Source of the DNA: Dehalobacter restrictus DSM 9455
Lineage (GTDB): Bacteria; Bacillota; Desulfitobacteriia; Desulfitobacteriales; Syntrophobotulaceae
Reading direction: 5' to 3'
DNA length: 32,000 bases
Assembly (NCBI RefSeq): GCF_000512895.1
Contig: NZ_CP007033.1
Location: 124,659 to 156,658, forward strand
In this document: positions 12,729 through 31,939 of the stretch, one piece after another
How the letters are laid out: the number at the start of each line of letters is the position of its first letter
Numbering within the stretch: the first letter of the stretch is position 1
Notes under the pieces: model-generated
The model's input: only the letters and a program-made list of their open reading frames with translations
What the model was told of the DNA's origin: nothing
The model's database searches: none
Translations under genes and position numbers: made by a program

Positions 12729-12783
12729 GTATATTCCCCTTTCCGTAGAATTCCCCCAGGCCGTTGCAAGACAAGACTATCAA

Positions 12784-13569: not shown

Positions 13570-13650
13570 GTTAGGAGCACCTCCGAAATTTTTTATTGAG
13601 AACAGAATACTTCGAGTTAATACTTCAGGTTAATTCGTATCTTTTTCAGT

Positions 13651-15006: not shown

Positions 15007-15056
15007 TTTCATTTTCCTCCTTGAATCAAATTACTATCAAAGTCTTCAAATATTAA

Positions 15057-16001: not shown

Positions 16002-16020
16002 TAGAATCTCCTCCTTCTTC

Positions 16021-16788
16021 TTATAAACCAATTATTTGGCAGATATCTTTAATTGCCCGTTTTGATAAACTGTCATCAGGCAAATTAACCAAGGCTTTTC
16101 CCTGAGAATCATACGCATATATCAATGGATCCAGGGCAATGATTCCCAGCAGTCCCAATCCCTGCAAGGAAATTTCTTCAATAATTCCCTCGTTTAATTT
16201 CCCATCCGGGGCTTTATTGATAATTAAATATTGTTGAGCTACTTTTAAACCTAGTTCTTTGACCAGCTTGTTAATACGGCCTACCGCCTGGACACCGCGG
16301 CGCGAACAGTCACTGACGAGAATCAAAATATCAATGTTTCTTGCTGTTCCGCGGCTGAGGTGCTCCATGCCGGCTTCATTGTCAATTATGACATAGTTGT
16401 ACTTATCAGAGACTTTGTCCAGCTGTTCCCGTAAAATCCCGTTGACGAAACAGTAGCAGCCTTTGCCTTCGGATCTTCCCATGACGAGGAGGTCATAACC
16501 ATTTCCTTCAGTAATACCGGTATTCAGTTGGTACTGAAGGTACTGGGCCTTGGTCATTCCTCCAGGAAAGCCGTCACGCATAGTTTCTCTTAAATTGACT
16601 TCTTCTCTGATTTCTCCAAGCGTAACTTCGATTGTTTCTCCCAGCACTTCGTTCAAGTTAGCATTGGCATCTGCATCGACAGCAAGTACAGGTCCTTGCT
16701 TGTTTTTTACAAGGTAATCGATCAGAAGTCCAGTAATGGTTGTTTTTCCGGTTCCGCCTTTACCTGCTACCGCAATCGTTTTTCCCAT
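16021..16788 (-). CDS. acsF: CooC/AcsF-type Ni-insertion ATPase (MinD/ParA fold)
   Basis: Deviant Walker A AGKGGTGKTT and the metal-binding CxC motif (GKGCYCFVNG). Confidence 0.8.
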   Translation of the reverse strand: MGKTIAVAGKGGTGKTTITGLLIDYLVKNKQGPVLAVDADANANLNEVLGETIEVTLGEIREEVNLRETMRDGFPGGMTKAQYLQYQLNTGITEGNGYDLLVMGRSEGKGCYCFVNGILREQLDKVSDKYNYVIIDNEAGMEHLSRGTARNIDILILVSDCSRRGVQAVGRINKLVKELGLKVAQQYLIINKAPDGKLNEGIIEEISLQGLGLLGIIALDPLIYAYDSQGKALVNLPDDSLSKRAIKDICQIIGL

Positions 16789-16793
16789 CGAAA

Positions 16794-17567
16794 CTACCTC
16801 TTTTCTAGATCAAAGCAGAGCTTAATTGCTTTGACTTCCTCAACAATCTTGCTGTTCATGAAGGGAGACTGATCTGGCCGGTCAGAATTGACGACGTCTA
16901 CGTTGTAAGAGATAAAGCCCAGGCAGGCTTCAGGATCGATATTTTCGAGGATATACGCTTTATCCAAATCGTTTTTGATCTTGTTGCCCACAGCATAAAT
17001 TTTCGGTATGCCAATATCGGAAGCTAATTTCTTAATCTTGTGGTACGTTTGGAGACTCCTAGCTCCGGGCTCAACGACCACAATAAAGGTATTCACACCC
17101 TGGGCTGTTCCTCTGCCGAGATGCTCAATCCCGGCTTCCATATCCATAACGACAACATCTTTATTTTGCAGGACTAAATGAGAAGTAAGTCTTTTCAACA
17201 GGACATGTTCCGGGCAAACGCAGCCGCTGCCGCCGCTTTCGACGGTACCCATCGTCAACAGATTTACACCGTTACAGCAGGTACAGTATTTGTCCGGGAT
17301 ATCATCTACCTGAGGATTTAATTTGAATATTTTACTAAAGGAATCGGTCGGGGTACTTGTTCTTTCTGCAATCAGTTCTTTCATTTCGGCAATCGGCACG
17401 ATCTTGGAAATAATCTCGTCAGGAAAACCAAGGGCTAAAGCCAGATTGGCATCAGGATCGGCATCAACTGCCAGGACCCGGTAGCCTTCCGCTGCATACA
17501 ACCTGCTTAGAATTGCTGCAAAAGTTGTTTTTCCGACGCCACCTTTACCTGTAATTGCTATCTTCAT
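16794..17567 (-). CDS. cooC: CooC-type CODH nickel-insertion ATPase
   Basis: Walker A TGKGGVGKTT and the CxC motif (GSGCVCPEH). Lies directly downstream of cooS. Confidence 0.85.
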   Translation of the reverse strand: MKIAITGKGGVGKTTFAAILSRLYAAEGYRVLAVDADPDANLALALGFPDEIISKIVPIAEMKELIAERTSTPTDSFSKIFKLNPQVDDIPDKYCTCCNGVNLLTMGTVESGGSGCVCPEHVLLKRLTSHLVLQNKDVVVMDMEAGIEHLGRGTAQGVNTFIVVVEPGARSLQTYHKIKKLASDIGIPKIYAVGNKIKNDLDKAYILENIDPEACLGFISYNVDVVNSDRPDQSPFMNSKIVEEVKAIKLCFDLEKR

Positions 17568-17654
17568 TTAAATCACCCCGACGCATCATTTATCTTTTGT
17601 TATCTGTTGCCTGAAGAAATTCTTCTGGCAAAAAAACGACCATGGCCGCGTTTT

Positions 17655-19619
17655 TTAAAAGCCGGCAGGAGCTAAGTCGTCATAGTCGGTAACATTCATT
17701 CTCTGAACGTTAAGCGCTTCGATTTTGGCTCTCTTTTCTTCAATTCTGGCCAGCATTTTTTCTGCGGCTACAGCCGGATCTGTTTCAAAGTAGAATTTTG
17801 CCCCTACCCAGTCTTCCAGTCTGTTTGTCAGGATATCCGTAACTTCCGGGCTTCCAGTTACCGGAGGAACAACGCCTAGAAAGGTATCGATTCCGGAGCT
17901 TACCACGTAGGTACCGATTGCGACAGCTTTTTCGGACATCCATTCCGGAGCTGCACCGACAACCGGCAGTTCGCTCATATCGAGTCCCAGAATCTTGGCT
18001 ACTTCACCAACCAGCTCAAGGATACGGCTGTTGTCAACACAGGAACCCATATGCAGAACAGGAGGAATATCGGCCAGTTCGCATACTTTTTGTAATCCTA
18101 CTCCGCAATACTTGACGGCATCTTTGCTTAAGAGACCAGCTTTGGCAGCAGCCTGAGCCGCACAGCCGGTAACAACAACAATTACGTCATTGGCGAGCAT
18201 CTTTTTAATAATTTCGATATGGCTGTGGTCACCTTTCACCTTCGGGTTGTTGCAGCCGACGACACCGGCTGCGCCTCTTAATACACCAGAGACCAAGCAT
18301 TGCGCCAATGGTTCAAACGTGCCTGGCTTATGCGTATAAGAATTGACAACGCGGTCCAACTGGCCAATAATAGCCTGGTTGCTGTAACCGATCATGCCGG
18401 TTGATTTATGTGTTGGGATGGAAACTTTTTCGTGCTTTCTGTTTGTATAGTTCTCTACTGCTTTCCGAATTATTCCCTTTGCGCATTCATAGGCGTTGTT
18501 CTCATCAAATTCAATATGAACGGCGTCTTTAATTTTGGCAAGTTTTGAGGTGGTGATAAATTTGGTATGGTAACATTGAGCCAGGTTGGCCAGGGAAGGG
18601 AAGATACATTGAACGTCCACAATCATGGCTTCAACGGCACCGGTAACAATCGCGAGCTCCTGCTGATTAAAATTCCCGGCAATTTTAATGCCGTGACGCA
18701 TCGCGACTTCATTGCCGGTACAGCAAATGCCGACCAGGTTGATTCCCTCTGCACCGACACCCCTGGCAAGAGCTTTTAGCTCAGGGTCATCAGCGGCAAC
18801 AACGATCATTTCCGATAAACTGGGTTCATGACCATGCAAGACAATGTTCACCATGTTTTTCTCAATAACACCCATGTTGGCTTCAATTTCTCTCGGCATC
18901 GGGGTTCCAAAGATAATATCGCTGAATTCGGTACCGATATAGGAACCGCCCCAACCGTCGGTCAAAGATGTCCGCATGGAAAGATTGATCATGCTTTCAG
19001 CATCAGCGGTACAGCCCATATGTGTAGCATGCATAATCGATACAACTTCTTTGTCAATAGCATCGGGGAGGATATCATTATCTTCCCAGACTTTTAATCT
19101 TTGTTTAGTAATACTTGGCGGAATAACCATCGAACCAAAAGGCTTGCCAAAGTCATTCAGAGCTGCTTCAGCAACGTCATGGGCAACCTGGTAGATATCT
19201 TTGCCTTCTGTAGCCACACCCCATCTGGCTGCAACATTCAGCAGTTTTTTCTCGTCACGGATTTGATAATCTCCGTCCCGACTTGCCATATGAAGTACAT
19301 GGGCAATATGTCTGCCGTGATCGGAGTGTGCAGATGAACCGCCTGCTACCATTCGGGCATAATGCCTGGAAGCAATAACATCCGCAGTGGCGCCGCAAAT
19401 ACCTTTTTGAACGCCTTTTCCTGGAATCGGGCTGACGCGGCAAGGACCCATGGTACAAATCCGGCAGCATACACCTTGCTCACCAAAACCACATTGGTTT
19501 TTGAGAGCGGCTTTTCTGTCCCAGAGTGTTTCAGAACCGTCATTTCGGGCCTTGACGTAAAGTTCTTGAGTAGCTAAATCTACTGACAGTGTTGTTTCGT
19601 CCAGTAATTTTTCGTCCAT
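17655..19619 (-). CDS. cooS: Anaerobic Ni-Fe carbon monoxide dehydrogenase catalytic subunit
   Basis: N-terminal D/B-cluster cysteines CGFGEQGVCCRICTMGPCRV and C-cluster region motifs (HGHEP, CCTGNE, GSCVDNSR). The ATG at 19619 has GGAGG 7 nt upstream. Confidence 0.95.
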   Translation of the reverse strand: MDEKLLDETTLSVDLATQELYVKARNDGSETLWDRKAALKNQCGFGEQGVCCRICTMGPCRVSPIPGKGVQKGICGATADVIASRHYARMVAGGSSAHSDHGRHIAHVLHMASRDGDYQIRDEKKLLNVAARWGVATEGKDIYQVAHDVAEAALNDFGKPFGSMVIPPSITKQRLKVWEDNDILPDAIDKEVVSIMHATHMGCTADAESMINLSMRTSLTDGWGGSYIGTEFSDIIFGTPMPREIEANMGVIEKNMVNIVLHGHEPSLSEMIVVAADDPELKALARGVGAEGINLVGICCTGNEVAMRHGIKIAGNFNQQELAIVTGAVEAMIVDVQCIFPSLANLAQCYHTKFITTSKLAKIKDAVHIEFDENNAYECAKGIIRKAVENYTNRKHEKVSIPTHKSTGMIGYSNQAIIGQLDRVVNSYTHKPGTFEPLAQCLVSGVLRGAAGVVGCNNPKVKGDHSHIEIIKKMLANDVIVVVTGCAAQAAAKAGLLSKDAVKYCGVGLQKVCELADIPPVLHMGSCVDNSRILELVGEVAKILGLDMSELPVVGAAPEWMSEKAVAIGTYVVSSGIDTFLGVVPPVTGSPEVTDILTNRLEDWVGAKFYFETDPAVAAEKMLARIEEKRAKIEALNVQRMNVTDYDDLAPAGF

Positions 19620-19931
19620 TGCGTTTCCTCCTTCAATAACCATACGTTGTCTTTAAATCGTTTAGCTGCTACAGATGGCTAATACTTAAAGTAAAAAGTG
19701 TCGTGTACTGAGGTTTTAACTCAAATCGGGCCATTTATGAGTAAATTCACAAACTTTTTTAAAGGATCAAAGCTTTATCTCTGGCAGTAAAAATGGTATA
19801 AAAATGACATTATATATTTAAGATTATTATAGTACGAAATTTTTTGGGAATATATTGATCCGTTGTTAATGAACGAAATGGGGGGCTGAATAGCAATAAT
19901 TCAATTCTTAACAGCATAATTTATATATACT

Positions 19932-19941
19932 TGTATATAAA
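19932..19941. promoter_or_regulatory. Near-copy (9/10) of the TGTATATACA palindrome
   Basis: TGTATATAAA within CTTGTATATAAAT. Its centre lies 50 bp from the centre of the perfect copy at 19982..19991. Confidence 0.4.
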
Positions 19942-19961
19942 TAAAAATTAAAAAAGTTATC

Positions 19962-19993
19962 TGTATAGGCCTGTATATTTTTGTATATACAAG
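19962..19993. promoter_or_regulatory. Candidate operator array: TGTATA half-sites at 19962 and 19972, plus the perfect palindrome TTGTATATACAA (19981..19992)
   Basis: The sequence cTGTATAggccTGTATAttttTGTATATACAAGg was read directly. The hexamers repeat at exactly 10 bp. The same 13-mer TTGTATATACARG recurs at 22050 and 28365. Confidence 0.6.
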
Positions 19994-19994
19994 G

Positions 19995-20023
19995 ATAATT
20001 GCACTAAAAGAATTTTTTCACAA
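19995..20023 (-). promoter_or_regulatory. Possible sigma-A promoter of the cooS-acs operon
   Basis: The minus strand reads TTGTGA (20023..20018), a 17-nt spacer, then TGc-AATTAT (extended -10; hexamer 20000..19995). The palindrome starts 2 nt downstream of the -10 hexamer and so would cover the TSS. The hexamers are weak. Confidence 0.3.
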
Positions 20024-20164
20024 GATCTTACTTATCGATCTCACTTAGTAACTTAGCACGTATGGTTAGGATCTCGGGATGTTATGATATTCTGAGGAGA
20101 TCTAGACGACAGGATAGTGTATGCCAGTTTTCCGATGATGGCAGAAAGCTCGTTTTTCAACATT

Positions 20165-21130
20165 TTACAGCAAATCACTACTGTCTTCATCATAATTCCT
20201 CAACTCAATCGATTTTTTTGCTTGGAATATATAATCTAATTCTTTATTGTTGAGATTTAAAGCGCCGATTCCGTTTGCAGTGGCCAGCTCCAAAACGGCG
20301 TGTTTACTTATTCCTGTCATAACCATGTGATCGACTTCATCATAAAAACCTTTTCCATGGGATACCCCGTATGAACCCGCATCGCTGCCAACGGCGATTT
20401 TTACGCCCAATTCAAAGGCTTTTTTGACTTGAGCTTTCTGAGCATCATAAATCCGGGCAATATTCGGCAATTGGTCTGTAAAGCGGCTGTCTTTTGAAGT
20501 AATCAGGTTTCCCAAAGGTGCTAACGTAGGAATCCAGATGGTATCGTGTTCCAGCATCAGCTGCAATTCATTTTCTGTCAGAAAATAACCATGCTCAACT
20601 GTATTTGCACCGGCTTTCACAGCGATACCAACTGCTTCTGCCGAATTAGTGTGGACCATTACGGGAAGGTCTTGATCCTTTGCCGTCTGTATCATGTAGT
20701 ACATTTCATCATAACTGAAATGTGAGCCGTCAACTTTCCCGAATTGATTAAAATCTACAAGTCCGGTCAGTAGTATCTTAAGATGATCAGGATTTGACGC
20801 AAGCAGCTTTTTAAAAACATTTTTGAAATCAGCCATATCGGCGACCGGCTTGCCTAAGAAACTGCCGTAGCATCCTTGTTTGTAGATCGCAAAACCAGGG
20901 GTCCGGAGAATCATTCCTTCTTCAAGGGCCAGTTCTCTGGCCAGAAGAGATACATTTAAGTTATCTCCTCCGTCGCGCAGTGCACAAATCCCCATTTTTT
21001 TATATTTTCTAAGGAAATTGGTAATTATAGTTGGATTGGGGTTATCTTTGTGCTGCAGACGTGCCTCTTGAAAAGCTATTCCATCTAAAGCCAAATGAAC
21101 ATGGGCGTCAACCAATATGTTTTTAATCAT
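20165..21130 (-). CDS. Amidohydrolase-superfamily metal-dependent hydrolase (short, about 321 aa); substrate unknown
   Basis: HxH motif (VDAHVHL), later His residues (VMVHTNS, TVEHGY) and the Asp motif (AVGSDAG) match the amidohydrolase TIM-barrel metal-ligand pattern. The ATG at 21130 has AGGTG 5 nt upstream. Confidence 0.7.
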   Translation of the reverse strand: MIKNILVDAHVHLALDGIAFQEARLQHKDNPNPTIITNFLRKYKKMGICALRDGGDNLNVSLLARELALEEGMILRTPGFAIYKQGCYGSFLGKPVADMADFKNVFKKLLASNPDHLKILLTGLVDFNQFGKVDGSHFSYDEMYYMIQTAKDQDLPVMVHTNSAEAVGIAVKAGANTVEHGYFLTENELQLMLEHDTIWIPTLAPLGNLITSKDSRFTDQLPNIARIYDAQKAQVKKAFELGVKIAVGSDAGSYGVSHGKGFYDEVDHMVMTGISKHAVLELATANGIGALNLNNKELDYIFQAKKSIELRNYDEDSSDLL

Positions 21131-21160
21131 TTTATTCACCTGGCTTTAAAAGGTTTTGCA

Positions 21161-21193
21161 GACCACCAGAAGGGGACCGCCTTTCTAGTGGTC
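21161..21193 (-). other. Stable intercistronic hairpin between the methyltransferase and amidohydrolase genes
   Basis: GACCACCAGAAGG / CCTTTCTAGTGGTC forms about 12 bp with one mismatch and a 6-nt loop. There is no U-tract on the transcribed (minus) strand. Confidence 0.4.
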
Positions 21194-21220
21194 ACAACAT
21201 TTCATTTTTCTCGTCGATCT

Positions 21221-22024
21221 TTATTTCACAGGACCAATTTTACCTTGTCTGAAAGCGGTGCTGAACTTTCTGCAGTTCTTGTCTTTACCCATTAATGCTT
21301 CAGTTGCAAGCAGGGTTGCAATCATATCTCTGCTGCAGGGATCCATAATCGCGGAATCCATACCAAAGAAAGTAGCCAGGGCCAGGAAGTTCTGGTTGAC
21401 AACTTTTCTTAAAGGCATTCCAAAAGAGATGTTGCTCAAACCGGAAGTGATTTTGATTGTCGGGTACATTTCTTTGATTCTTGTCATGCTTTCATTAAAG
21501 GAGTACATAGAATTGTTATCAGTAGACAAAGCAATGACCAAGGGGTCGACATGCATCCTGTCAGGAGTAATATCATATTTAGCAGCTTCCTCAACCATTT
21601 GCTTAGCAATTCTGACTCTGGTGTCAACGTCTTTGGGAATTCCGTCATTGTCGCAAGTCAGCGCAATGACTTCCCAGGTCGTTCCCTTGATAAGCGGGAA
21701 AATGACATCGCATTTGTCGCCTTCCATGGAAACGGAATTGATAAGCCCCGGTCTCTTGGCATATTTAAAAACAGCTTCAATTGCACGCGGATTCGGGCTG
21801 TCAATACAGAGCGGAGTGTCAACGGCATCCTGAACAATATCCATTAACCATTTCAGTGTTTCCACTTCAACATCAGGTGATGTACTGGCACTGACATCTA
21901 GGTAGTGGGCGCCGTCATTGGTCTGGTCAATCGCACGCTGGCGGATAAAGTTAGCATCTCTCTCTTCAATCGCTTTTTTCACGATAGGGATTGTACCATT
22001 GATTTTTTCACCAATAATAATCAT
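21221..22024 (-). CDS. Second pterin-binding methyl-H4folate:corrinoid methyltransferase (MtrH/MtgA/AcsE-like, MT2-type)
   Basis: MIIIGEKINGT..., HYLDVSA, CIDSP and GLSNISFG match the DHPS-like pterin-binding barrel. It is a paralogue of the acsE at 12784..13569. Confidence 0.85.
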   Translation of the reverse strand: MIIIGEKINGTIPIVKKAIEERDANFIRQRAIDQTNDGAHYLDVSASTSPDVEVETLKWLMDIVQDAVDTPLCIDSPNPRAIEAVFKYAKRPGLINSVSMEGDKCDVIFPLIKGTTWEVIALTCDNDGIPKDVDTRVRIAKQMVEEAAKYDITPDRMHVDPLVIALSTDNNSMYSFNESMTRIKEMYPTIKITSGLSNISFGMPLRKVVNQNFLALATFFGMDSAIMDPCSRDMIATLLATEALMGKDKNCRKFSTAFRQGKIGPVK

Positions 22025-22049
22025 TTATCAAATTCACTCCTTTATGAAA

Positions 22050-22062
22050 TTTGTATATACAG
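22050..22062. promoter_or_regulatory. Candidate operator TTGTATATACAGG (perfect core palindrome TGTATATACA 22051..22060)
   Basis: Read directly. It lies between the predicted promoter (22074..22102) and the RBS (AGGAGTG, 22034..22040) of the methyltransferase gene. Confidence 0.6.
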
Positions 22063-22073
22063 GTATGCGCTTA

Positions 22074-22102
22074 GAGTTTAACATTGTTTCTACATACGGT
22101 CA
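22074..22102 (-). promoter_or_regulatory. Putative sigma-A promoter of the methyltransferase-amidohydrolase unit
   Basis: The minus strand reads TTGACC (22102..22097), a 17-nt spacer ending in TGt (extended -10), then TAAACT (22079..22074). Confidence 0.4.
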
Positions 22103-22216
22103 ATATCTTTTTCGACAAAGTATACCTATATTCTAAAAAGATTTAGATTTAAAAAATAAAAGTATCCTACATATTCTATCTTTCATAGACTATTTAAATT
22201 GCTGGGTCAACAAGGT

Positions 22217-23068
22217 TTACCAGTGTTTTTTTCTGGCTGCCCGCAGACAGTTTTTCATCAAAATCGCGGTGGTAATCGAACCTACGCCGCCCGGTACAGG
22301 GGTGATCGCACTGACTTTGTTCACGACTGCATCATAATCGACATCCCCGCACATCTTGCCGTCACCGGCATCGTTGATGCCAACGTCGATGACGACAGTG
22401 TTTTCGGATACGTATTTGTCATCGATCATTTTGGCTCTGCCCATTGCAGCAATGATGATGTCCGCTTTCTTCGCAATTCCAGCCATGTCTTTGGTCTTGG
22501 AATGGCACATCGTTACGGTCGCATTCTCTTTTAAGAGCATCATGGCCAGTGGTTTTCCTACAACGAGGCTTCTTCCCATGACCACTACATTCGCGCCGCT
22601 AAGATTGTAGCCGTAATGGCTCAAGGTTTCCATACATGCTGCGGGCGTGCAGGGCAGGAGTCCGCTCATATCGCCTTCAAATACCTTGGCCAGGTTCAGT
22701 GGATTCATGCAGTCAATGTCTTTATCTGCCGAGATCAGGTGCTTGATGACTTCTTCGTCCAGCTGTTTCGGTAGTGGACGGAACAGCATGATGCCATGAA
22801 CGGTACTGTCATTGTTGACCCCCGTCATGACTTTTGTGAATTCTTCCATGCTGATATTTAAGTCCAAAGGATAGGTCTTGGTTGCAATGCCAAGATTATC
22901 GCAGTTTTTAATAATACTGTTTTCATAGTAAACGTCGTCCGGACGGCTGCCGACGCGAATGATGCCTAAGGTCGGGTTGATGCCTTCAGCTTTTAAAGCC
23001 GCAACTTCCTGCTGGAGGTTTTCTTTCATGGCCTGGACAACGGGTTTAGCGTTAAGAATCTGAGTCAT
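22217..23068 (-). CDS. folD: Bifunctional methylene-H4folate dehydrogenase / methenyl-H4folate cyclohydrolase
   Basis: 283 aa. Contains PTLGIIRVGSRPDDVYY, LLPCTPAAC, VVVMGRSLVVGKPLAMML and ITPVPGGVGSITTA, which are canonical FolD motifs. Confidence 0.95.
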   Translation of the reverse strand: MTQILNAKPVVQAMKENLQQEVAALKAEGINPTLGIIRVGSRPDDVYYENSIIKNCDNLGIATKTYPLDLNISMEEFTKVMTGVNNDSTVHGIMLFRPLPKQLDEEVIKHLISADKDIDCMNPLNLAKVFEGDMSGLLPCTPAACMETLSHYGYNLSGANVVVMGRSLVVGKPLAMMLLKENATVTMCHSKTKDMAGIAKKADIIIAAMGRAKMIDDKYVSENTVVIDVGINDAGDGKMCGDVDYDAVVNKVSAITPVPGGVGSITTAILMKNCLRAARKKHW

Positions 23069-23073
23069 GCTGC

Positions 23074-23706
23074 TTATTTACCTCCCGTAATTGCATTCTG
23101 AACTTCCGCAAAGATGCGGTCGGCTTTGGCGGTATATGTGGTGACAAGTTCGCTCAGTTCGGTCTCGATTTTTTGTTTTAGAACCTGATCTTTCATGATT
23201 TGGGTGTTGATTAAGACATTCAGCTTGGCGCCTTCGAGCGCAGCTTTCAGGAAGGTTACGCCGACACCAACGTCGCTGATCGCAATACGGGTGCCTTTCT
23301 GAGCAAATTCTTCCTGAAGATTGATGCCGTCAGTGCAGCATCTAACAATATCAAGCGGTACAAGTGTTGCTTTAACCAAAGCAGCCTGCAGGGTTTCTTC
23401 TTTGATCCGGATTTCTTCTTCAGTATTTTTGGGCAGTCCGTAAGCCTGGGAAAGCGGATAGAAAGCATCAGCATCTTCCTTGACCAGAACCTGCAGTTTT
23501 TCAATGATCTTCTGGCCTTTTTCCATCAGGACGAGTACATCGGCTTCAACATCAGCATATTTCTTCTTGCCGACAGTTAAACTTCCTACCATGACACCCA
23601 GCGCCATGCCGATGGAGCCAACATATGCAGAAGCACCGCCGCCGCCAGGAACCGGCTCTTTGGAAGACAGAGCATCTACAAATTCGATACAGCTCTTTTT
23701 CAACAT
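23074..23706 (-). CDS. fchA: Cyclodeaminase/cyclohydrolase family protein (FchA-type methenyl-H4folate cyclohydrolase / formimino-H4folate cyclodeaminase)
   Basis: The PVPGGGGASAYVGSIGMALGVMV motif and all-helical composition fit the family. The ATG at 23706 is 9 nt from AGGAG. Lies between fhs and folD, as in acetogen clusters. Confidence 0.85.
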   Translation of the reverse strand: MLKKSCIEFVDALSSKEPVPGGGGASAYVGSIGMALGVMVGSLTVGKKKYADVEADVLVLMEKGQKIIEKLQVLVKEDADAFYPLSQAYGLPKNTEEEIRIKEETLQAALVKATLVPLDIVRCCTDGINLQEEFAQKGTRIAISDVGVGVTFLKAALEGAKLNVLINTQIMKDQVLKQKIETELSELVTTYTAKADRIFAEVQNAITGGK

Positions 23707-23914
23707 AATATCCATCTCCTGTTCTTCATTTTTTTCTAAATTTTTAGCTACTGATTATTGCATGAGCAACCAATATATAGCGATCCCATAGTTATGTTAT
23801 CTTAAGACAAGTATTCTACAAAATACTCAAAGCTTAAATTCTGGCATCTTGCTCTAGAAACTAGTCTGTGTAATACATAGACAACGTCAGTGAATAAAGA
23901 TTAAGAGCATTTAT

Positions 23915-23951
23915 AGAATGAGATGGTAGTACAAAGCTGCCATCTCATTCT
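23915..23951 (-). terminator. Perfect 12-bp hairpin downstream of fhs (probable terminator or RNA-stabilising stem)
   Basis: AGAATGAGATGG-13 nt-CCATCTCATTCT, 27 nt after the fhs stop. No clear U-tract follows it on the minus strand. Confidence 0.45.
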
Positions 23952-23977
23952 TATTGGAAACAATATCAAACTTTATC

Positions 23978-25654
23978 TTAGAATAAGCCGGAAATCTTAC
24001 CGGTGCTGTCTACGTCAATGTTTTCAGCGGACGGTACTTTCGGCAGGCCGGGCATGGTCATGATGTCCCCGGTAAGTGCAACGGCAAAGCCCGCACCAGC
24101 AGAAATCTTCACGCCACGGATCGAGATTCTGAAGCCTGATGGACGTCCCAGTTTCTTCTGGTCATCAGACAAGGAATACTGGGTCTTCGCCATACAGACC
24201 GGAACATCACGATAGCCGATCTTTTCGATGTTCTCGATATCTGCGGAGCTGCTGCCAATGAAGTCAACACCGTCTGCACCATAGATCTTGGTGGCAATTG
24301 CGGTAATCTTGTCTTTGAGGCCCATGTTGATGTCATAAGCAAAGTTAAAGCTTTTCGGGCTGTCAATGATGCGAAGGACTTCTTCAGCCAGTTTCGCGCC
24401 GCCAGGGCCGCCTTTTTCCCAAACTTCGGAAAGGGCTACATTAACGCCCAGTTTCTTGCACTCGTCTTCAATCATTGCCAGTTCAGCTTCGCTGTCGGTC
24501 GGGAATTTATTGATCGCAACAACGGCAGGCAGACCAAAGTTGACGGTGACGTTTTCAACGTGTTTTAAGAGGTTCGGCAAGCCTTTTTTGAGGGCCTCCA
24601 GGTTTTCTTTGTTGAGATCAGCTTTAGCTACGCCGCCATGGGATTTGAGCGCACGAACGGTTGCAACGATAACAACGGCTTCCGGACGCAGGCCACTTAA
24701 ACGACATTTGATATCAATAAATTTCTCAGCGCCGAGGTCAGCACCGAATCCAGCTTCAGTTACAACATAGTCGCCAAGTTTTAAAGCCATCTTGGTCGCC
24801 ATAACACTATTGCAGCCGTGAGCAATGTTCGCGAACGGTCCGCCGTGGATGAAAGCTGGTGTATGTTCAAGAGTTTGTACAAGGTTCGGTTTTAAAGCAT
24901 CTTTCATCAGGGCACCAACAGCACCTTGACATTTCAGTTGACCGGCAGTTATGGGTTCACCGCTTCTGTTGTAGGCGACAATGATTCTCTCAACTCTCGC
25001 TTTGAAGTCGTCAATATCGCTGGACAGGCACATGATCGCCATGATTTCAGAAGCAACCGTGATGTCAAAGCCGTCTTCTCTCGGAGTACCATTGGCTTTG
25101 CCACCAAGTCCGTTGACAATGGAGCGGAGCTGACGGTCATTCATGTCCATGCATCTTTTCCAAGTAATTCTGCGAACATCGATATCCAGCGCGTTGCCTT
25201 GTTGGATATGGTTGTCGAGCATCGCTGCAATCAGGTTGTTAGCAGCACCAATGGCATGAAAATCACCTGTGAAGTGAAGGTTGATATCTTCCATTGGTAC
25301 GACCTGAGCATAACCGCCGCCAGCGGCGCCACCTTTGACACCAAATACAGGGCCTAAGGATGGTTCGCGTAGTGCAATAACAGTTTTTTTGCCGAGATAA
25401 TGGAGAGCATCTCCTAACCCGACAGATGTCGTAGTTTTACCTTCTCCGGCAGGAGTCGGGTTGATGGCAGTAACCAGAATCAGTTTGCCATTCGGTGTGT
25501 CCGCTTTTTGATTCAATAAGTTGTAGTCGACTTTGGCTTTGTATTTGCCATAGGATTCCAGATAATCCTCGGGGATTCCGAGTTCTTTTGCTACATCTAA
25601 TACAGGCAGCATGGTTGATTCCTGGGCAATTTCAATATCACTTTTGAAAGCCAT
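23978..25654 (-). CDS. fhs: Formate--tetrahydrofolate ligase (formyl-H4folate synthetase)
   Basis: 558 aa. Contains [24 protein letters not shown] and the [23 protein letters not shown] signature. Confidence 0.97.
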
Positions 25655-25750
25655 TAATTGTTTTCCCCCTTTTTTTAATTATGGACATCTTTGCTTAACT
25701 TTATTTAGATTTTACGTAAGCACTATCAAATTTTTTCTGGACAAGATGGT

Positions 25751-26605
25751 CTATATCCATAACAGCAGTAGGTTTTTTTTGTACATGAAACTCATCCAGT
25801 AAATAATCCCGACAAACAGGCTGCCGCCGACAATATTTCCGAGCGTAACAGGAATAAGGTTATTCACAACAAACGTTCCCCAGTTAAGGTGAGCAAGTTT
25901 TTCAGGTGTTACACCGAGCGTTGCAGCCTGGGCCACCCAGGTTGGGTTGGCTTTGGCGAGAATGCCGGCAGGAATGTAATACATATTGGCTACACAGTGT
26001 TCAAAACCGGAAGTAATAAACAGCCAGATCGGGAAAAAGATAGCGAGGAGTTTACCGGTAATATCCTTGGCTGCATTCGCCATCCAAACGGCCATACAAA
26101 CCAGCCAGTTGCACAAGATCCCCATGAAGAAAGCTTTCGGGAAAGTCAGGCCCGTCTTGTATGCGGCGACTTTGATTGTAAACCCTCCGAGCAAACCTGC
26201 GGAAAAGTCAAACTGGCCGGAGTAAAGGATAAACAGGACGATAAGCATGGAACCAATAAAGTTCCCGACATAGACAATCGTCCAATTCCGCAGCATCTTT
26301 AGCCATCTTGATTCTTTTTCCATACAAGATACCACAATCAGGGTGTTTCCGGTGAATAATTCAGCTCCGGTGATAACCACCATCATCAGTCCTGTGGCAA
26401 ATAAAGCACCAGCGAGTGCTTTGCCTAAGCCAACAGAAGTGATGGTGTGAATGGCAGTATTAGAGCCTTCCGCCGCGAAGGCAATAAAGGCTCCTGCTAG
26501 GATTGCCAACAGCAGCAATTTCAATATAGAAGAATTCGTTTTATTCTTTCCATATTCTACAAATCCCTCAGTAATCTCTGAAGGAGTCTTAAACATTTTT
26601 TCCAT
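25751..26605 (-). CDS. focA: Formate/nitrite transporter (FNT) family channel, FocA-like
   Basis: A membrane protein with six or more hydrophobic segments and the FNT signatures GAELFTGN and SGFEHCVANMYYIP. The start could instead be the ATG at 26596. Confidence 0.88.
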   Translation of the reverse strand: MEKMFKTPSEITEGFVEYGKNKTNSSILKLLLLAILAGAFIAFAAEGSNTAIHTITSVGLGKALAGALFATGLMMVVITGAELFTGNTLIVVSCMEKESRWLKMLRNWTIVYVGNFIGSMLIVLFILYSGQFDFSAGLLGGFTIKVAAYKTGLTFPKAFFMGILCNWLVCMAVWMANAAKDITGKLLAIFFPIWLFITSGFEHCVANMYYIPAGILAKANPTWVAQAATLGVTPEKLAHLNWGTFVVNNLIPVTLGNIVGGSLFVGIIYWMSFMYKKNLLLLWI

Positions 26606-26645
26606 TTCTCCTACCCCTATTATAAGTGTATTTAGGCTGATTTAA

Positions 26646-26706
26646 AAGGTCATAAAGTTTAAAGGACGGTTACAAAGACTGAATGGCCTTTAAACCTTAT
26701 GACCTT
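26646..26706 (-). terminator. Long hairpin immediately after the metF stop (probable terminator)
   Basis: AAGGTCATAAAGTTTAAAGG / CCTTTAAACCTTATGACCTT pairs at 19 of 20 positions with a 21-nt loop. On the minus strand it is followed by TTTTAAAT. Confidence 0.5.
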
Positions 26707-28268
26707 TATTCTTTTTCTTCGAAATTTGTTCTAGGTTTAATGCCAAGTCTTTCCGCAGAGTGGTCCTGGCCTTCAAAAAAGTTTATCCAGCCTGAAGTAT
26801 GCTGTTTTTCCCAATTGTAAGGGCTCACATGATAGGAATTCAGCTTTTCTTCCTCAGAATAGCCTTTTAAGCGGTAATAGGCTTTGACCCAGATGCACTT
26901 CTGCTTGTCCGGATACACTTCACACCAGCCGTTGTAGCTTCCTTCACATGGGCCGTTCCGTTGGTTCTTGGGACAGTTGCCCATTGGACAGACGTAGGCT
27001 ACATCAATCAGCGCACAGTCACCACAGTCCTGGCAATTGTACATGCAGGATTTGGCAAAGTGCTCAATGCCGTGAAAAGGTTTTTCCAACGCAGAATCTT
27101 TTATGGCATGACAAAATCCACGCATAAAGCCGAACATTCCTTTGTTGGGTTCAAACATCATTTTGTGAACAACTCTGGACATCTTATAATTTAAATCAAA
27201 GCTCTTCTCATAATTGTTGTAGTCATTGGATTTTTGAGCAGTATTCAGGCCGGTCTTTTCATCTTTGGCGTAAACATAGAAACCGTTTTTCTGAGGATAG
27301 TCAAACTCCCGGACATAATCCTGCCAGTTGGCGGCCAGTTCGTTTCCGCGGTCAATAATATATTCAACTTGTTCGTACGTCGTATTATGCCCGCCGAGAT
27401 GAACGCCTTTGTATCCCATACCTTTCAAGATAGCAAAGAGTTTCGCTGCCCTATCGAGCATGGCGGCGGCACCCTTGTCACTGCTTTGTTTTTCCTGTTC
27501 CAGTTCAGCAACGAGCTTGTCCGTAATAACACATCCGGGGACTTTATTCATACTCATCGCTTTGGCAGCACCATAAGTCAGCAGGTAAATATTTCCCATT
27601 AAGCATCCGCGCAGGTTATTGTGCTTCACAAATTGATAGAGTTCGTGGTACTTCCTGACATCGTAGCCAACTTGGGGTATAATGAATTGAGCACCGTTCT
27701 CGATCTTCTTTCTGAGCTTGGTGTACTGGAGCATCTGTTCGGCTTCGGTGGCTTTAAAAGGTGAAACAGCAGCACCCGCAAAAAGATGGGTTGGCTGAAG
27801 TTTATTGACACCTTTAGCTGTGGGGAGTTCCAATCCGTCATTCATCTTGGCGATAAAGGCCAAGAGCTGAGTGGAATCAAGGTCAAAAACCGGTTTGGGC
27901 CGTCCGAAAAAATTACCCGGATCATGGTCGCCGGTCAGTACCAACAAGTTATGGAGCCCCGAACGTTCCAGGGAAAAAAGCTGGCTTTCCAGTTGCGTGC
28001 GGTTTTTGTCCTTGCAGGCAACGTGAATAATTGCATCGATGCCTAAACTTTTGATTTCCCTGCCAATGCCCTCAGGATTAATGCCGACACTTCCACCCGG
28101 GTTGTCAGTCAGACTAACAGCATGGATCTTTTTCCCTTTAGCAGCTTGTTCCGCCAATTGAAGCGCTTTTTCCTGAGAAACTTCTTTAGAGCCGCGGCCG
28201 GGTACGAGTTCCCATGTTACAATAAACTCATTGTTGTCCTGTATTGCTTTACGAAAAGTGTTCTCCAT
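26706..28268 (-). CDS. metF: Methylene-H4folate reductase fused to a C-terminal MetV-type Cys-rich domain (MetF-MetV fusion)
   Basis: The N-terminal ~300 aa form a MetF TIM barrel (VTWELVPGRG, SLTDNPGG, LVLTGD). The C-terminus CMYNCQDCGDCALIDVAYVCPMGNCPKNQRNGPCEGSYNGWCEV matches the MTHFR_C/MetV domain. The ATG at 28268 has AAGGGGGA 5 nt upstream. Confidence 0.85.
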   Translation of the reverse strand: MENTFRKAIQDNNEFIVTWELVPGRGSKEVSQEKALQLAEQAAKGKKIHAVSLTDNPGGSVGINPEGIGREIKSLGIDAIIHVACKDKNRTQLESQLFSLERSGLHNLLVLTGDHDPGNFFGRPKPVFDLDSTQLLAFIAKMNDGLELPTAKGVNKLQPTHLFAGAAVSPFKATEAEQMLQYTKLRKKIENGAQFIIPQVGYDVRKYHELYQFVKHNNLRGCLMGNIYLLTYGAAKAMSMNKVPGCVITDKLVAELEQEKQSSDKGAAAMLDRAAKLFAILKGMGYKGVHLGGHNTTYEQVEYIIDRGNELAANWQDYVREFDYPQKNGFYVYAKDEKTGLNTAQKSNDYNNYEKSFDLNYKMSRVVHKMMFEPNKGMFGFMRGFCHAIKDSALEKPFHGIEHFAKSCMYNCQDCGDCALIDVAYVCPMGNCPKNQRNGPCEGSYNGWCEVYPDKQKCIWVKAYYRLKGYSEEEKLNSYHVSPYNWEKQHTSGWINFFEGQDHSAERLGIKPRTNFEEKE

Positions 28269-28355
28269 AAGTATCCCCCTTTCCAATTATTCTCGAAAAT
28301 CTAACATGAAAATAAAAAATAAAGAAAATAAAAAGAGATAATTGCGTCCAAACAA

Positions 28356-28392: not shown

Positions 28393-28421
28393 AATATATC
28401 ATCCGAATTTTCAATAGTCAA
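28393..28421 (-). promoter_or_regulatory. Putative sigma-A promoter of metF
   Basis: The minus strand reads TTGACT (28421..28416), a 17-nt spacer, then TATATT (28398..28393). Confidence 0.45.
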
Positions 28422-28526: not shown

Positions 28527-28612
28527 ATGATATGTTAGAATGATTTTTTGGAAAAAGACGGTTGTCCTTCGCTGAAAATGGCAGGTTTCATTATAACAGA
28601 AAGGAAAACAAT

Positions 28613-30406
28613 ATGATGAAAAAAGTTCTATTTCCAAACCAGAATAAAGAAATCTTATGCCAGGAGAATGATACGGTTGCTGTTGCCTGTTCAGGTCTTG
28701 GATATCCGCTTGATCTTGTATGCGGAGGAAAAGGTACATGTAAAAAATGCACAATTGAAATAGAAAGGGACGGCATACGGCAGGAAGTATTGGCGTGTCA
28801 GGAACCAGTAAGCGACGGCTTGATCGTTTATCTTAAATATGGAGACTACAAACATGAAGCCTCGATTTTAACGGACCGCATTGAAACAGAGCTGAACATC
28901 GATCCGCCGGTTAAAAAGATTTTTATTGATAAGAAGTTTCTAAAAACACCGTTCTATTACGGGGACTGGGAACATATTCAAGCCAAGGTTCCGGTCCGGA
29001 TTAATACGCCAGCTTTATGCCTTCTGCAAAAATTATCACAGCTGATGCAGAAACTGGAAATGGACGGCATTACTTTGGTCTTAAGAGACGAACAGCTGCT
29101 TGATATTGAGCAGGGCGACACCTCAGCCAGCAATTATGGATTTGCCGTTGACCTTGGGAGTACCTCTGTTGTGGCCTACTTATATGACCTTAATAGTGGC
29201 AAAAAAGTAGGGGTATATTCCGCCTTGAACGGTCAGATTACGGAAGGCGCGGATGTTATATCCCGTATCATGGCGGCGATGAAGAATTCTGAAGGGCTAA
29301 AAATTCTTCAGCGTAAAGTGGCAGAGACCATTAACGCTCTGATTCTGGAAGCGATACAGCAAAACCAGATCAGCGCCGAAAATATCTATACGATGGTGAT
29401 TTGCGGCAACAGTGCCATGCAGCACATCTTTTTAGGGTTGCATCCTGGATCGCTTGGCAGGACGCCTTACACCAATACGATTTTAAGTGAAGTGTTAACA
29501 ACAGCACGGGAGTTGAGCCTTAACATTCATCCCAATGCCATTATTGATTTTTTACCTTTGATCGGGGGCTTCGTCGGAGCGGACACTTTGGCTGTCCTGC
29601 TGGCTTTGCCTGAAGGGGAACGTCAAGGGAACAGATTGATTATTGACCTTGGAACAAACGGCGAAATTTTATTGGGGAACGAGAAGAAATGGCTGGCCAC
29701 ATCAACTGCTGCCGGACCGGCCCTTGAAGGAGCAACGATCCGCTTTGGAATGCGTGGAACAAACGGAGCCATCGAACGGGTAAAACTGTCGGAAGGTAAA
29801 ATTGAATTAAAAGTCATTGGCGGAGAACAGCCCAGAGGGATTTGTGGCTCCGGTATTGTTGATGCAGTTGCAGAAATGCTGAAAGCCGAGCTGATCAGTA
29901 AAGAAGGCAGATTGCTGTCTCCCGGCAAATATTTAAAAGTTTGTCGGCCGGAAAATCAAAGATTTGCCAATTATCTGGCAAATCTTGACGGGGTCAGCGT
30001 TTTCTACCTGATGGATGAGGGACAGTCCGGTGATAACGACCGAATTTACATCAGCCAAAAGGATATTCGTGCTGTACAGCTTGCCAAAAGCGCCATTTAT
30101 ACAGGATGCATGCTATTAATGAAAGAATATGGGCTGGAAGGAGAAGATCTTGAGGAAATTCTGATTGCCGGGGCCTTCGGCAACTATATTGACGCTCCAA
30201 GTGCTCAGGTACTCGGTTTGTTTCCCAATTTTTCGAATGTACCCATCCGGTCCATAGGCAATGCGGCAGGAGCCGGAGCATCGAATTTTCTACTGTCCAG
30301 AAATATACGGATAAATACTTTGATATTATTGGCAAAGATAACGCATTTTGACCTGGCGGCAAATCCTGCTTTTCAACAGGAATATCTGCAGAATACAGGT
30401 TTTTAA
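28613..30406 (+). CDS. Second RACo-type corrinoid reductive activase (2Fe-2S ferredoxin plus ASKHA ATPase)
   Basis: CGGKGTCKKC...LAC is a ferredoxin motif. AVDLGSTSVV and DLGTNGE are ASKHA motifs. The protein is collinear with the 8616..10550 protein but clearly divergent from it. The ATG at 28613 follows AAAGGAAAA. Confidence 0.85.
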   Translation: MMKKVLFPNQNKEILCQENDTVAVACSGLGYPLDLVCGGKGTCKKCTIEIERDGIRQEVLACQEPVSDGLIVYLKYGDYKHEASILTDRIETELNIDPPVKKIFIDKKFLKTPFYYGDWEHIQAKVPVRINTPALCLLQKLSQLMQKLEMDGITLVLRDEQLLDIEQGDTSASNYGFAVDLGSTSVVAYLYDLNSGKKVGVYSALNGQITEGADVISRIMAAMKNSEGLKILQRKVAETINALILEAIQQNQISAENIYTMVICGNSAMQHIFLGLHPGSLGRTPYTNTILSEVLTTARELSLNIHPNAIIDFLPLIGGFVGADTLAVLLALPEGERQGNRLIIDLGTNGEILLGNEKKWLATSTAAGPALEGATIRFGMRGTNGAIERVKLSEGKIELKVIGGEQPRGICGSGIVDAVAEMLKAELISKEGRLLSPGKYLKVCRPENQRFANYLANLDGVSVFYLMDEGQSGDNDRIYISQKDIRAVQLAKSAIYTGCMLLMKEYGLEGEDLEEILIAGAFGNYIDAPSAQVLGLFPNFSNVPIRSIGNAAGAGASNFLLSRNIRINTLILLAKITHFDLAANPAFQQEYLQNTGF

Positions 30407-30507
30407 AGAAAGTAAATAAATTAGTTGCTTAAAAAATATTGATGGATTTATTAATCTGTTCCTATGTATAATATATGATAACTAAATAATTGCCGAGGAG
30501 TAAGAAG

Positions 30508-31221
30508 ATGGAATTACCAATCTATCAACATATTATTGAAGAGATAAAGAAAAAAATTAAAGAGGGTGTTTTGAAACCGGGAGATGCGATCCCTTCAGAA
30601 AATTCATTATGCGATACCTATGGCGTGAGCCGGATGACGGTCCGTAAGGGTCTGGCAATCTTAGTGAATGAGGGATATATCACCTCTATCCCTGGCAAGG
30701 GTAGCTTTGTGAATGAGCCGGATTCCAAGAAATACATCTTATATTACAACGAGATGGCAAATCTGATTAACACCATCGATACAACCAAGCTGATTGAAGT
30801 TAAAATTATCCTGCCGACACCAAGACTCATTGACAGTCTGAATATACCCCAAAGCAAAAAAATAATTATGGTTAAACGGATCCATTACAGCAATGGAGAA
30901 GCAGTCGCATATGATGAAAAATACCTGATTTACTACAAGGGAATGCCTATCGTTGAAAAAGAAATCAAATACAGTACTTTCCCGGAAATTGTTTCTCGGT
31001 ATACTTCTCTGTTTGCGATTAAGAAAGAATTAACAATTTCTGCCCAAATGCCTGATGAAAAAATATCAAAATACCTGTCCCTGTACAATGCCCTCCCACT
31101 TTTGGTTGTTGAGCAAAGACTGTTTAATACACAGGATAAGCCAATCGGGCTGGGTATTACTTATTATCGAGGAGACAGCTGCAAGCTATCCGCATCCTGG
31201 CCGTTTACCGATATGGAATAG
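30508..31221 (+). CDS. GntR-family transcriptional regulator, HutC subfamily (N-terminal wHTH plus C-terminal UTRA effector domain)
   Basis: The LPSENSLCDTYGVSRMTVRKGLAILVNEGYITSIPGKGSFV wHTH motif, the ~237 aa length and the C-terminal pattern are typical of UTRA. GAGGAG lies 7 nt upstream of the ATG. Confidence 0.88.
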   Translation: MELPIYQHIIEEIKKKIKEGVLKPGDAIPSENSLCDTYGVSRMTVRKGLAILVNEGYITSIPGKGSFVNEPDSKKYILYYNEMANLINTIDTTKLIEVKIILPTPRLIDSLNIPQSKKIIMVKRIHYSNGEAVAYDEKYLIYYKGMPIVEKEIKYSTFPEIVSRYTSLFAIKKELTISAQMPDEKISKYLSLYNALPLLVVEQRLFNTQDKPIGLGITYYRGDSCKLSASWPFTDME

Positions 31222-31325: not shown

Positions 31326-31390
31326 TAACATCCATGGACGGCAAGGGGTGGCACACTTTTGGATCATTATTTATTATTAGGAGAAAAATA

Positions 31391-31939
31391 ATGTTGCTTA
31401 TTCTTTATTTAGCTGCCATCATTATTGCGAATATCATTACTGCAGCGCTGGCACCTTTGCAGGTAGGACCGTTTTTAATTCCTTACGGAAGCTGGCTGAT
31501 AGGGGTGACGCTGGTACTTAGGGACATTATCCAGCGCAAGTACGGGCGAAAAACTGCTTATCTGGCGATTACCACGGCTCTTGTCCTATCGGCTGTTTCC
31601 TCCAAACTTCTTGGAGATACTTTGACCATTACTTTGGCTTCAGCCATTTCCTTTTTGATCTCGGAATCGGCAGACACGGAAATTTATACGAGGCTTAAAG
31701 GCTCTTTCCTGCGTAAAGTGTTTGCGAGCGGGATTGTCAGCAGTTTTCTCGATAGTGTAGTCTTTATATTAATTGGTCTGTCCCCGCTTATTTCAGGCAT
31801 TCTGACCTGGGATTTTGTGCCGAATGCAGTACTGGGGCAGTTTGCTGTTAAGAGTCTGATGCAAGTGCTCGGAATAAGCATTCTGTTTATGATTAAGAAC
31901 CACTGGGAGGTTACCGTAAATGAAAAACAAGGAAACTGA
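31391..31939 (+). CDS. yhhQ: Queuosine-precursor transporter, VUT/YhhQ (DUF165) family
   Basis: A polytopic membrane protein with the FLISESADTEIYTRL motif typical of YhhQ/DUF165. The ATG at 31391 has AGGAG 8 nt upstream. The listed ORF start at 31334 lies in the leader. Confidence 0.75.
   Translation: MLLILYLAAIIIANIITAALAPLQVGPFLIPYGSWLIGVTLVLRDIIQRKYGRKTAYLAITTALVLSAVSSKLLGDTLTITLASAISFLISESADTEIYTRLKGSFLRKVFASGIVSSFLDSVVFILIGLSPLISGILTWDFVPNAVLGQFAVKSLMQVLGISILFMIKNHWEVTVNEKQGN

Follow-up and report, generated by a model that had tools for sequence, protein, structure and literature searches.

A 32,000-nucleotide stretch of the Dehalobacter restrictus DSM 9455 genome (the window) carries an island of one-carbon (C1) genes of the Wood–Ljungdahl, or acetyl-CoA, pathway, and inside it a gene for a GntR-family transcription regulator with a UTRA effector domain. 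We put at about 75% the probability that this regulator recognises TGTATATACA palindromes, which stand as candidate operators before three gene units of the island: the cooS–acs genes, the metVF genes and an accessory methyltransferase unit. If true, this would be an undescribed control circuit for the Wood–Ljungdahl pathway in Dehalobacter and its relatives; regulation of this pathway is poorly understood, and the published examples that we found involve other regulator families. The initial annotation of this DNA had named the regulator as the likely binder and proposed a dedicated Wood–Ljungdahl circuit. The word ‘dedicated’ looks too narrow, because in most lineages the regulator and its sites go with a corrinoid methyltransferase module.

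The regulator gene (30508–31221, plus strand) starts at an ATG 7 nt past a GAGGAG ribosome-binding site and encodes 237 amino acids, 100% identical in sequence comparison to the D. restrictus ‘GntR family transcriptional regulator’. The assignment as a HutC-type protein, made in the initial annotation, is borne out by a winged helix-turn-helix (Pfam GntR, PF00392, 8.5e-21, residues 6–68), a C-terminal UTRA (chorismate-lyase-like) effector domain (PF07702, 1.5e-19, residues 92–224) and structure matches within the HutC subfamily. The nearest PDB sequence matches are NagR/YvoA (5.5e-21), YydK and DasR, in full-length alignment; the segment SRMTVR...G.G.FV aligns with NagR, and its recognition-helix SRMTVR is identical to that of NagR. 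Foldseek, given an AlphaFold model (pLDDT 77), retrieves HutC-subfamily structures only: YydK, NagR, DasR, PhnF, and TreR and HutC effector domains, with target-normalised TM-scores of 0.7–0.87 on the effector domains of TreR, DasR, PhnF and HutC. By domain, modelled fold and sequence, it looks like an ordinary HutC-subfamily GntR repressor.

The protein reaches no NCBIfam equivalog cut-off, its best match being HutC (TIGR02018, 109 bits against a cut-off of 220), with 96 bits against 212 for the TreR equivalog (TIGR02404). We rejected its identification as HutC proper, given the subthreshold score, the absence of hut genes from the loci and 24% identity to true HutC, and as TreR proper, given the corresponding score and the absence of adjoining sugar genes. 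Judged by sequence, it belongs to a distinct, unnamed orthologous group of anaerobic Firmicutes (conserved at 55–99% identity; mean column identity 72% over 18 members) with members in Peptococcaceae, Desulfitobacteriia, Thermincola, Desulfosporosinus, Desulfotruncus, Tepidanaerobacteraceae, Thermosediminibacter, Geosporobacter and Formimonas. As first annotated, it is the sole transcription factor of the C1 island, with no other helix-turn-helix protein among the island’s open reading frames. A terminator-like hairpin (31300–17) lies 3′ of the gene, followed by a Vut_1/YhhQ-like transporter gene that is not at the corresponding position in locus L001.

The palindrome GT-A-TA-T-AC, initially reported at three sites, is indeed present there and nowhere else in the window: TGTATATACA occurs exactly three times (19982–91, 22052–61 and 28366–75), always between genes. 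The 3.4 kb of intergenic DNA is only 33% GC and was therefore shuffled on its own. It holds the 3 exact copies where 0.006 are expected and 5 sites with at most one mismatch where 0.195 are expected, and none of 1,000 dinucleotide shuffles reached the exact or the one-mismatch count. Over the whole window, with one mismatch counted, there are 5 sites against 0.59 expected. A position weight matrix, from whose training the window and its two near-identical relatives were left out, placed its six best matches in the window in four intergenic regions, all upstream of module or Wood–Ljungdahl genes. The resulting candidate operators are as follows, MT II denoting a pterin-binding methyltransferase:

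22047–22066, candidate operator of the MT II/amidohydrolase unit, core TGTATATACA at 22052–61, 24.6 bits, the best site of the window
19977–19996, candidate operator 1 of cooS–acs, core at 19982–91, 20.0 bits
19917–19946, candidate operator 2 of cooS, two overlapping weaker matches of 15.3 and 14.1 bits
28353–28380, candidate operator of metVF, core at 28366–75, 14.8 bits, plus a conserved GTATAC half-site at 28357–62
6724–6743, tentative operator TGTAGATACA (core 6729–38, one mismatch), 12.7 bits, about 190 bp upstream of the corrinoid-protein gene

The last of these is called tentative because its score falls within the range of shuffled sequence. The two cooS operators lie 60 bp apart, start to start, with operator 2 the downstream one, a spacing kept in Dehalobacter sp. 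DCM, in which an operator aligns with operator 1. The metVF operator falls in a divergent region shared with RACo2 and the regulator gene; the regulator lies directly downstream of RACo2, and the region upstream of RACo2 holds this third site (28366–75), both as initially described. Three units downstream of these sites are predicted targets:

22217–28286, minus strand, metVF–transporter–fhs–fchA–folD, drawn as one operon from strand and spacing only
20165–22024, minus strand, MT II plus amidohydrolase, whose 63–72% identical orthologues adjoin the regulator in most loci
8616–19643, minus strand, cooS, cooC, cooC, acsD, acsC, acsE, acsB and RACo1, assigned from translations and Pfam

Phylogenetic footprinting, which the initial annotation had suggested as a check, favours the island regulator as the binder. 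About 80 related genomes were compared, and a scan at one genome per species gave 75 orthologue loci (48–99% identity; 1.23 Mb). These loci hold 70 exact copies of TGTATATACA where 1.25 are expected, a 56-fold enrichment, and 154 copies with at most one mismatch where 35 are expected. Orthologue and motif occur together in about 60 of the 75 loci, in several families of Clostridia. Dyad symmetry in the aligned sites extends to about 18–20 bp, with the consensus ATACnTGTATATACAnGTAT. When a site is counted if it scores at least 15 bits and lies within 300 bp upstream of a gene, sites are distributed as follows:

MT II orthologues, 81% with an upstream site (n = 54)
metVF, 83% with an upstream site (n = 6)
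corrinoid-protein genes, 42% with an upstream site (n = 48)
random background windows, 0.4% with a site (n = 2377)

In 29 of 54 loci a site also stands just upstream of the regulator-containing operon, and these sites cluster at 730–830 bp or about 1430–1540 bp upstream of the regulator start. Other corrinoid methyltransferase clusters carry paralogous GntR/UTRA regulators (35–41% identity) with the variant cores CGTGTACACT, TGTGTATACG and CGGTATAGACAAG (locus L049, palindromes at 238 and 3124, gene at 5075–5773; locus L071, palindrome at 7621, gene at 10001–10678), which hints at a wider family of methyltransferase-cluster regulators. The T. kivui and C. aceticum loci, which have a homologous amidohydrolase and lack the regulator, show no strong site. 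In a clade of Bacillota metagenome-assembled genomes (MAGs; L024, L025, L029 and L047, regulator 56–58% identical), the only site is a degenerate one, AATACATGTATAG(C/T)CAAGG, about 170–190 bp upstream of the methyltransferase gene and followed by a long leader.

The sites also keep a fixed register to promoters. In front of each of the 44 MT II-upstream operators in the orthologous loci stands a sigma-A promoter of the near-consensus form TTGACA-17-(TG)nTATAAT, matched at 9/12 or better (10/12 or better in 34); between the –10 box and the start of the 20-bp site the modal gap is 9 nt, and a ribosome-binding site and start codon follow 30–60 nt past the operator. An operator just past the –10 box, at about +1 to +20, occupies the classical repressor position. 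In the window, site 2 (22047–66) begins 8 nt past the –10 box of TTGACC-17-TAAACT (22103..22075, minus strand), and site 3, at metVF, 12 nt past that of TTGACT-17-TATATT (28421..28393, minus strand). Operator 1 of cooS is abutted by a weak TTGTGA (20023..20018)-17-AATTAT (20000..19995).

These counts and positions bear on whether the palindrome is a protein operator at all. It might instead arise by chance or from the base composition of AT-rich promoters, or be a structural element of RNA or DNA. Its sequence is rich in A and T and looks like TATA strings of the –10 type, and a metagenome scan with the 20-bp palindrome returned, among the matches listed, mainly eukaryote-like TA/TG low-complexity DNA and no methyltransferase loci. 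Such a reading is nevertheless very improbable in view of the shuffles of the AT-rich intergenic DNA, the 56-fold enrichment in orthologous loci, the fixed register to promoters and the dyad symmetry over 18–20 bp. An RNA element at the palindromes or in the cooS leader was likewise rejected: no Rfam family is found in the window at the gathering threshold, and the 352-nt cooS leader folds no better than its shuffles (z = –1.6).

Which genes the sites precede varies between lineages. In most, the regulator gene lies between genes for a second B12-binding protein and a RACo, the stop of the B12-protein gene overlapping the regulator start, and the adjoining operon encodes MT II, a corrinoid protein, a 384-residue methyltransferase I (MT I), a 47-residue protein and a major facilitator superfamily (MFS) transporter, often with DUF1638. 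The only solved relative of this MT I (locus L076, 5663–6820) is CdmB, a chloromethane:corrinoid methyltransferase (3e-22). DUF1638 and RamA-like proteins have been tied genetically to corrinoid reactivation. On this comparative evidence, MT II, corrinoid protein, CdmB-like MT I and RACo make up a corrinoid methyltransferase module that forms the conserved core of the predicted regulon. This module alone is linked in the regulator loci of Desulfosporosinus, Thermincola, Desulfotruncus, Geosporobacter and others. Like the MT I, two other conserved module proteins are poorly characterised: the 47-residue protein (L076, 6832–6975) and a Cys-rich protein of 235 residues (L076, 12739–13446) that weakly matches the MetH activation domain (E = 0.015). 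All three are absent from the window. The second B12-binding protein (about 225 residues, DxHxxG present, about 60 loci, for example L076 9322–10008) could be a partner or co-sensor.

In the loci compared, Wood–Ljungdahl genes join the predicted regulon only in Dehalobacter and Peptococcaceae, with both branches of the pathway, and in Tepidanaerobacteraceae and Koleobacter, with the methyl branch only. With the amidohydrolase as anchor, we recovered the same island from Dehalobacter sp. DCM and two Peptococcaceae MAGs; in Dehalobacter sp. DCM and three Peptococcaceae MAGs the regulator is 75–86% identical to that of the window. In these loci (L083, L084, L085 and L005), the top-scoring sites in 20 kb precede cooS (by 71–312 bp) and the MT II/amidohydrolase unit and fall in the metVF/regulator divergent region. 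The cooS-upstream DNA of two Dehalobacter species aligns around the two operators only, and an alignment of metVF-upstream DNA from 8 genomes retains as its sole conserved blocks the –35 box, the extended –10 box and CCTGTATATACAATAGTATAC. Because the sites are kept in four relatives with the same island layout, the predicted three-unit regulon appears conserved in the Dehalobacter clade, which speaks for the joint control of cooS–acs, metVF and an accessory methyltransferase that the initial annotation had proposed. In Tepidanaerobacter and Koleobacter, MT II, fhs, fchA, folD and metVF (plus gcvH) form one operator-preceded operon, and in Desulfosporosinus sp. OT a 27-bit site lies 75 bp before fhs. 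The conserved theme of the predicted regulon is transfer from methyl-corrinoid to methyl-tetrahydrofolate (methyl-THF), reaching THF–C1 and acetyl-CoA genes in some lineages.

The family and fold of the regulator, the enrichment of the motif, the conservation of its position and its co-occurrence with the regulator are in silico observations; that the regulator physically binds the sites, and represses rather than activates, is what we infer from them. In the mechanism we propose, a regulator dimer would bind the 18–20-bp palindrome with the consensus given above, just past the –10 box (about +1 to +20) of a sigma-A-type promoter, and so block transcription until a small molecule on the UTRA domain released it. 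The ancestral core regulon would have comprised MT II, the corrinoid protein, a CdmB/O-demethylase-like MT I, a transporter, and RACo plus DUF1638 reactivation factors. In the D. restrictus clade the same operator would have been put on the promoters of metVF–fdhC–fhs–fchA–folD, MT II–amidohydrolase and cooS–acs, and possibly, as a fourth, on that of the corrinoid-protein gene, so that one regulator would couple methyl-group entry with the methyl and carbonyl branches of the acetyl-CoA pathway.

Several observations weigh against this proposal, and the first of them concern the identity of the binder. The palindrome is not unique, so a paralogue encoded elsewhere in the genome could compete for the sites. 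The operators that the initial annotation had named for this subfamily are in print: a TreR box, TTGTATATACAA (PMC11356801), and a HutC-family consensus, NyGT(A/C)TA(T/G)ACNy, with the C. difficile CelR site AAATGTATATACATTT (bioRxiv 10.1101/2021.06.26.450058). The consensus of the sites studied here agrees with this published family motif. Together with Pseudomonas HutC, whose site is TGTA-N2-TACA (PMC12977541), TreR and CelR give the proposal a precedent, as experimentally shown repressors with the same core operator (PMC11356801; 10.1101/2021.06.26.450058; PMC12977541). At least 9 of the metagenome matches lie about 100 bp from a GntR/UTRA gene whose product is 22–27% identical to the window regulator. 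Two annotated matches are genuine hut operons with HutC, urocanase, histidase and HutI/HutF-like amidohydrolases; their palindromes (L117, 3632–3651; L101, 3344–3363) lie about 100 bp from hutC and are identical to ATACnTGTATATACAnGTAT over the whole 20 bp, and their HutC is 24% identical to the regulator. With an operator thus shared with the HutC of hut operons, assignment to the island regulator depends on linkage and co-conservation, not on uniqueness of the motif. In the Bacillota MAG clade noted above, of about five members, orthologues are present together with only a degenerate half-site.

In the window itself, the matrix scan finds no operator near the regulator’s own start (30407–30507), and the shared site 3 lies about 130 bp upstream of a promoter-like site of RACo2, which together make autoregulation in the window doubtful. 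The initial annotation had placed a half-site before the regulator gene; its sequence, TGTATAATATA, is present at 30465–75 and contains a perfect TATAAT, but it scores nothing as an operator and is better read as a –10 box.

Both the breadth of the operator and the lack of a strong site at the regulator’s own promoter would fit a situation in which the sites are real HutC-type operators bound by a paralogue encoded elsewhere, the island regulator controlling something else. On the evidence of the window and the orthologous loci, we regard this as quite unlikely: regulator gene and motif are linked in about 60 loci of several families, at positions fixed relative to the adjoining genes; those neighbourhoods share no other conserved DNA-binding protein; and the paralogues of sister clusters use variant cores.

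The remaining objections concern the Wood–Ljungdahl units. The cooS operators lie 275–350 bp from the start codon, behind a weak promoter match (8.5/12), and promoter-like matches in the window are overall no commoner than in shuffles. Proteomics of D. restrictus detected all Wood–Ljungdahl proteins except MetF (PMC4751268), which means that the units are not all tightly shut under laboratory conditions. Taken with the restriction of the core regulon outside the clade to the methyltransferase module, the distant cooS sites and the detected proteins could mean that only the module is physiologically regulated, and that the cooS–acs and metVF sites are relics of rearrangement with little effect, or places where the regulator activates or fine-tunes and does not repress. 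We consider this unlikely. The cooS and metVF sites are kept in five genomes in which the flanking intergenic DNA has diverged beyond alignment, which argues for selection; the metVF operator shares the post-(–10) geometry of the module operators; and Tepidanaerobacter and Koleobacter have independently put fhs–fchA–folD–metVF in an operator-preceded operon. Repression of all three units by the island regulator is the reading that we prefer.

The C1 island is uninterrupted on the minus strand, with RACo2, the regulator and Vut_1 diverging from metVF on the plus strand. Its genes, together with the corrinoid-protein gene, are as follows:

6935–7573, plus strand, corrinoid protein (B12-binding), 70–78% identical to the module corrinoid protein elsewhere, a possible target
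8616–10562, minus strand, RACo1
10602–12728, minus strand, acsB
12784–13569, minus strand, acsE
13651–15012, minus strand, acsC
15057–16031, minus strand, acsD
16021–17567, minus strand, two cooC genes
17655–19643, minus strand, cooS
20165–21139, minus strand, Wood–Ljungdahl-associated amidohydrolase
21221–22024, minus strand, pterin-binding methyltransferase (MT II), an acsE paralogue, methyl-THF:corrinoid (Pfam; NCBIfam NF005719, 370 bits)
22217–23068, minus strand, folD
23074–23715, minus strand, fchA
23978–25654, minus strand, fhs
25751–26605, minus strand, formate/nitrite transporter (fdhC)
26706–28286, minus strand, fused MetV–MetF (methylenetetrahydrofolate reductase)
28562–30406, plus strand, RACo2, a corrinoid reductive activase paralogue, directly upstream of the regulator
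31334–31939, plus strand, Vut_1 membrane protein

We infer the operon boundaries within the island. The order of the cooS–acs genes is the same in L083–L085, and RACo2 and the regulator are possibly co-transcribed, no terminator being predicted between them. RACo2 has no Pfam Fer2 match, unlike RACo1, and its true start probably lies downstream of the mechanical TTG: an ATGATG preceded by a purine-rich stretch stands at about 28613 (within 28562–28616). The cooS start is probably the second ATG (MDEKLL..., window 19619–19643), where Dehalobacter sp. DCM starts in the alignment. Near the corrinoid-protein gene, a terminator-like hairpin (6824–6841) between the tentative operator and the start may be a leader or attenuator, and a strong terminator with a 17-bp stem (7641–7678) lies 3′ of the gene.

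A search of the window for MT I, the transporter, the second B12-binding protein and an intact DUF1638 gene found none of them. Relatives carry a DUF1638 gene between the amidohydrolase and cooS; its apparent deletion in D. restrictus accounts for the 521-bp gap at 19644–20164, and a 46-residue open reading frame (20053–20193, minus strand) matches the N-terminal 40 residues of the DUF1638 protein (tblastn, 3e-4). By this comparison, D. restrictus appears to have lost the three other components sought and the greater part of DUF1638. The amidohydrolase family adjoins Wood–Ljungdahl or glycine-cleavage genes in many acetogens and syntrophs (carriers include T. kivui, Moorella, C. aceticum, C. 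formicaceticum, Oxobacter and Koleobacter) and is a recurrent, unexplained component of such C1 clusters.

The mechanism proposed is standard for HutC-type repressors, so that the advance would be a new regulon and not a new principle. The prediction defines an operator, a promoter geometry and four target regions. If true, it would help to establish when organohalide respirers, syntrophic acetate oxidisers and sulfate reducers turn on the entry of methyl groups and the acetyl-CoA pathway, and it may supply an inducible promoter/repressor pair for genetically difficult anaerobes. A broader idea is much more doubtful: the orthologous group and its 35–41% identical paralogues might provide the transcriptional control so far missing for methyl-group and C1 metabolism in anaerobic Firmicutes, in which HutC-derived repressors sense a pathway-internal signal (perhaps a C1 species bound to THF, or the state of the B12-binding protein co-translated with the regulator in most lineages) instead of each external substrate, with a single acetyl-CoA pathway switch in Dehalobacter and a family perhaps descended from hut regulation via the formimino-THF link.

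The initial annotation had considered such a circuit not to be an established model for the acetyl-CoA pathway, and our literature search agrees: within the literature covered, it found no report of a GntR or HutC regulator for Wood–Ljungdahl, O-demethylase or corrinoid genes, nor of the window regulator. Corrinoid, methyltransferase and folate go unmentioned in a 2015 comparison of HutC-subfamily regulons. Regulation of methyltransferase systems is an acknowledged gap: according to a 2026 paper on chloromethane dehalogenation, neither cdm nor the other methyltransferase systems have a known regulatory system, and how the many corrinoid methyltransferase systems of anaerobes are regulated ‘remains largely unexplored’ (PMC13222342).

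Among known systems, HutC (Pseudomonas, Klebsiella; TIGR02018) resembles the regulator in its GntR winged helix-turn-helix and UTRA domains and in its TGTA-N2-TACA operator, and in hut it acts as a repressor at sites overlapping promoters, released by a small molecule. Unlike HutC, the regulator has no hutH, hutU or hutI near it in the window or in 85 related loci; its predicted targets are corrinoid methyltransferase and THF/acetyl-CoA genes, and nothing points to urocanate. TreR of Bacillus and CelR of C. difficile are HutC-type repressors of Firmicutes with the same operator core (TTGTATATACAA and AAATGTATATACATTT), and the TreR effector domain superposes on the regulator model with a TM-score of 0.87. 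Unlike in these systems, no phosphotransferase-system or sugar genes lie by the regulator, and the operator flanks differ (AC-N / N-GT arms).

The closest solved structures by both sequence and fold are those of the N-acetylglucosamine regulators NagR/YvoA and DasR (PDB 2wv0, 4wwc and 4zs8). They bind palindromic dre sites as dimers, and several operators per regulon are common; they differ from the regulator in sequence (22–25% identity) and in that its predicted regulon is unrelated to amino sugars. At the alignment position that we take to be the second phosphate-binding arginine of NagR, the regulator has His or Leu, so that a sugar-phosphate effector is not indicated.

Coordinated expression of Wood–Ljungdahl or carbon monoxide dehydrogenase (CODH) genes is also addressed by Rex and CooA/RcoM, which are further regulators of such genes. 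In C. autoethanogenum, the TetR-family activator CAETHG_0459 controls Wood–Ljungdahl genes (PMC6873888). All of these belong to other protein families, with other motifs and signals; none is HutC-type, and none joins corrinoid methyltransferase modules to both pathway branches. The Cdm and O-demethylase systems offer the comparison on the side of the targets. The D. restrictus window, unlike a Cdm-type module, is without MT I and a transporter. The MT I of the core regulon finds its best match in CdmB of Acetobacterium dehalogenans (PDB 9rui), over residues 109–378 only, and the architecture of those systems, with MT I, corrinoid protein, MT II and activating enzyme, is shared with the conserved core regulon.

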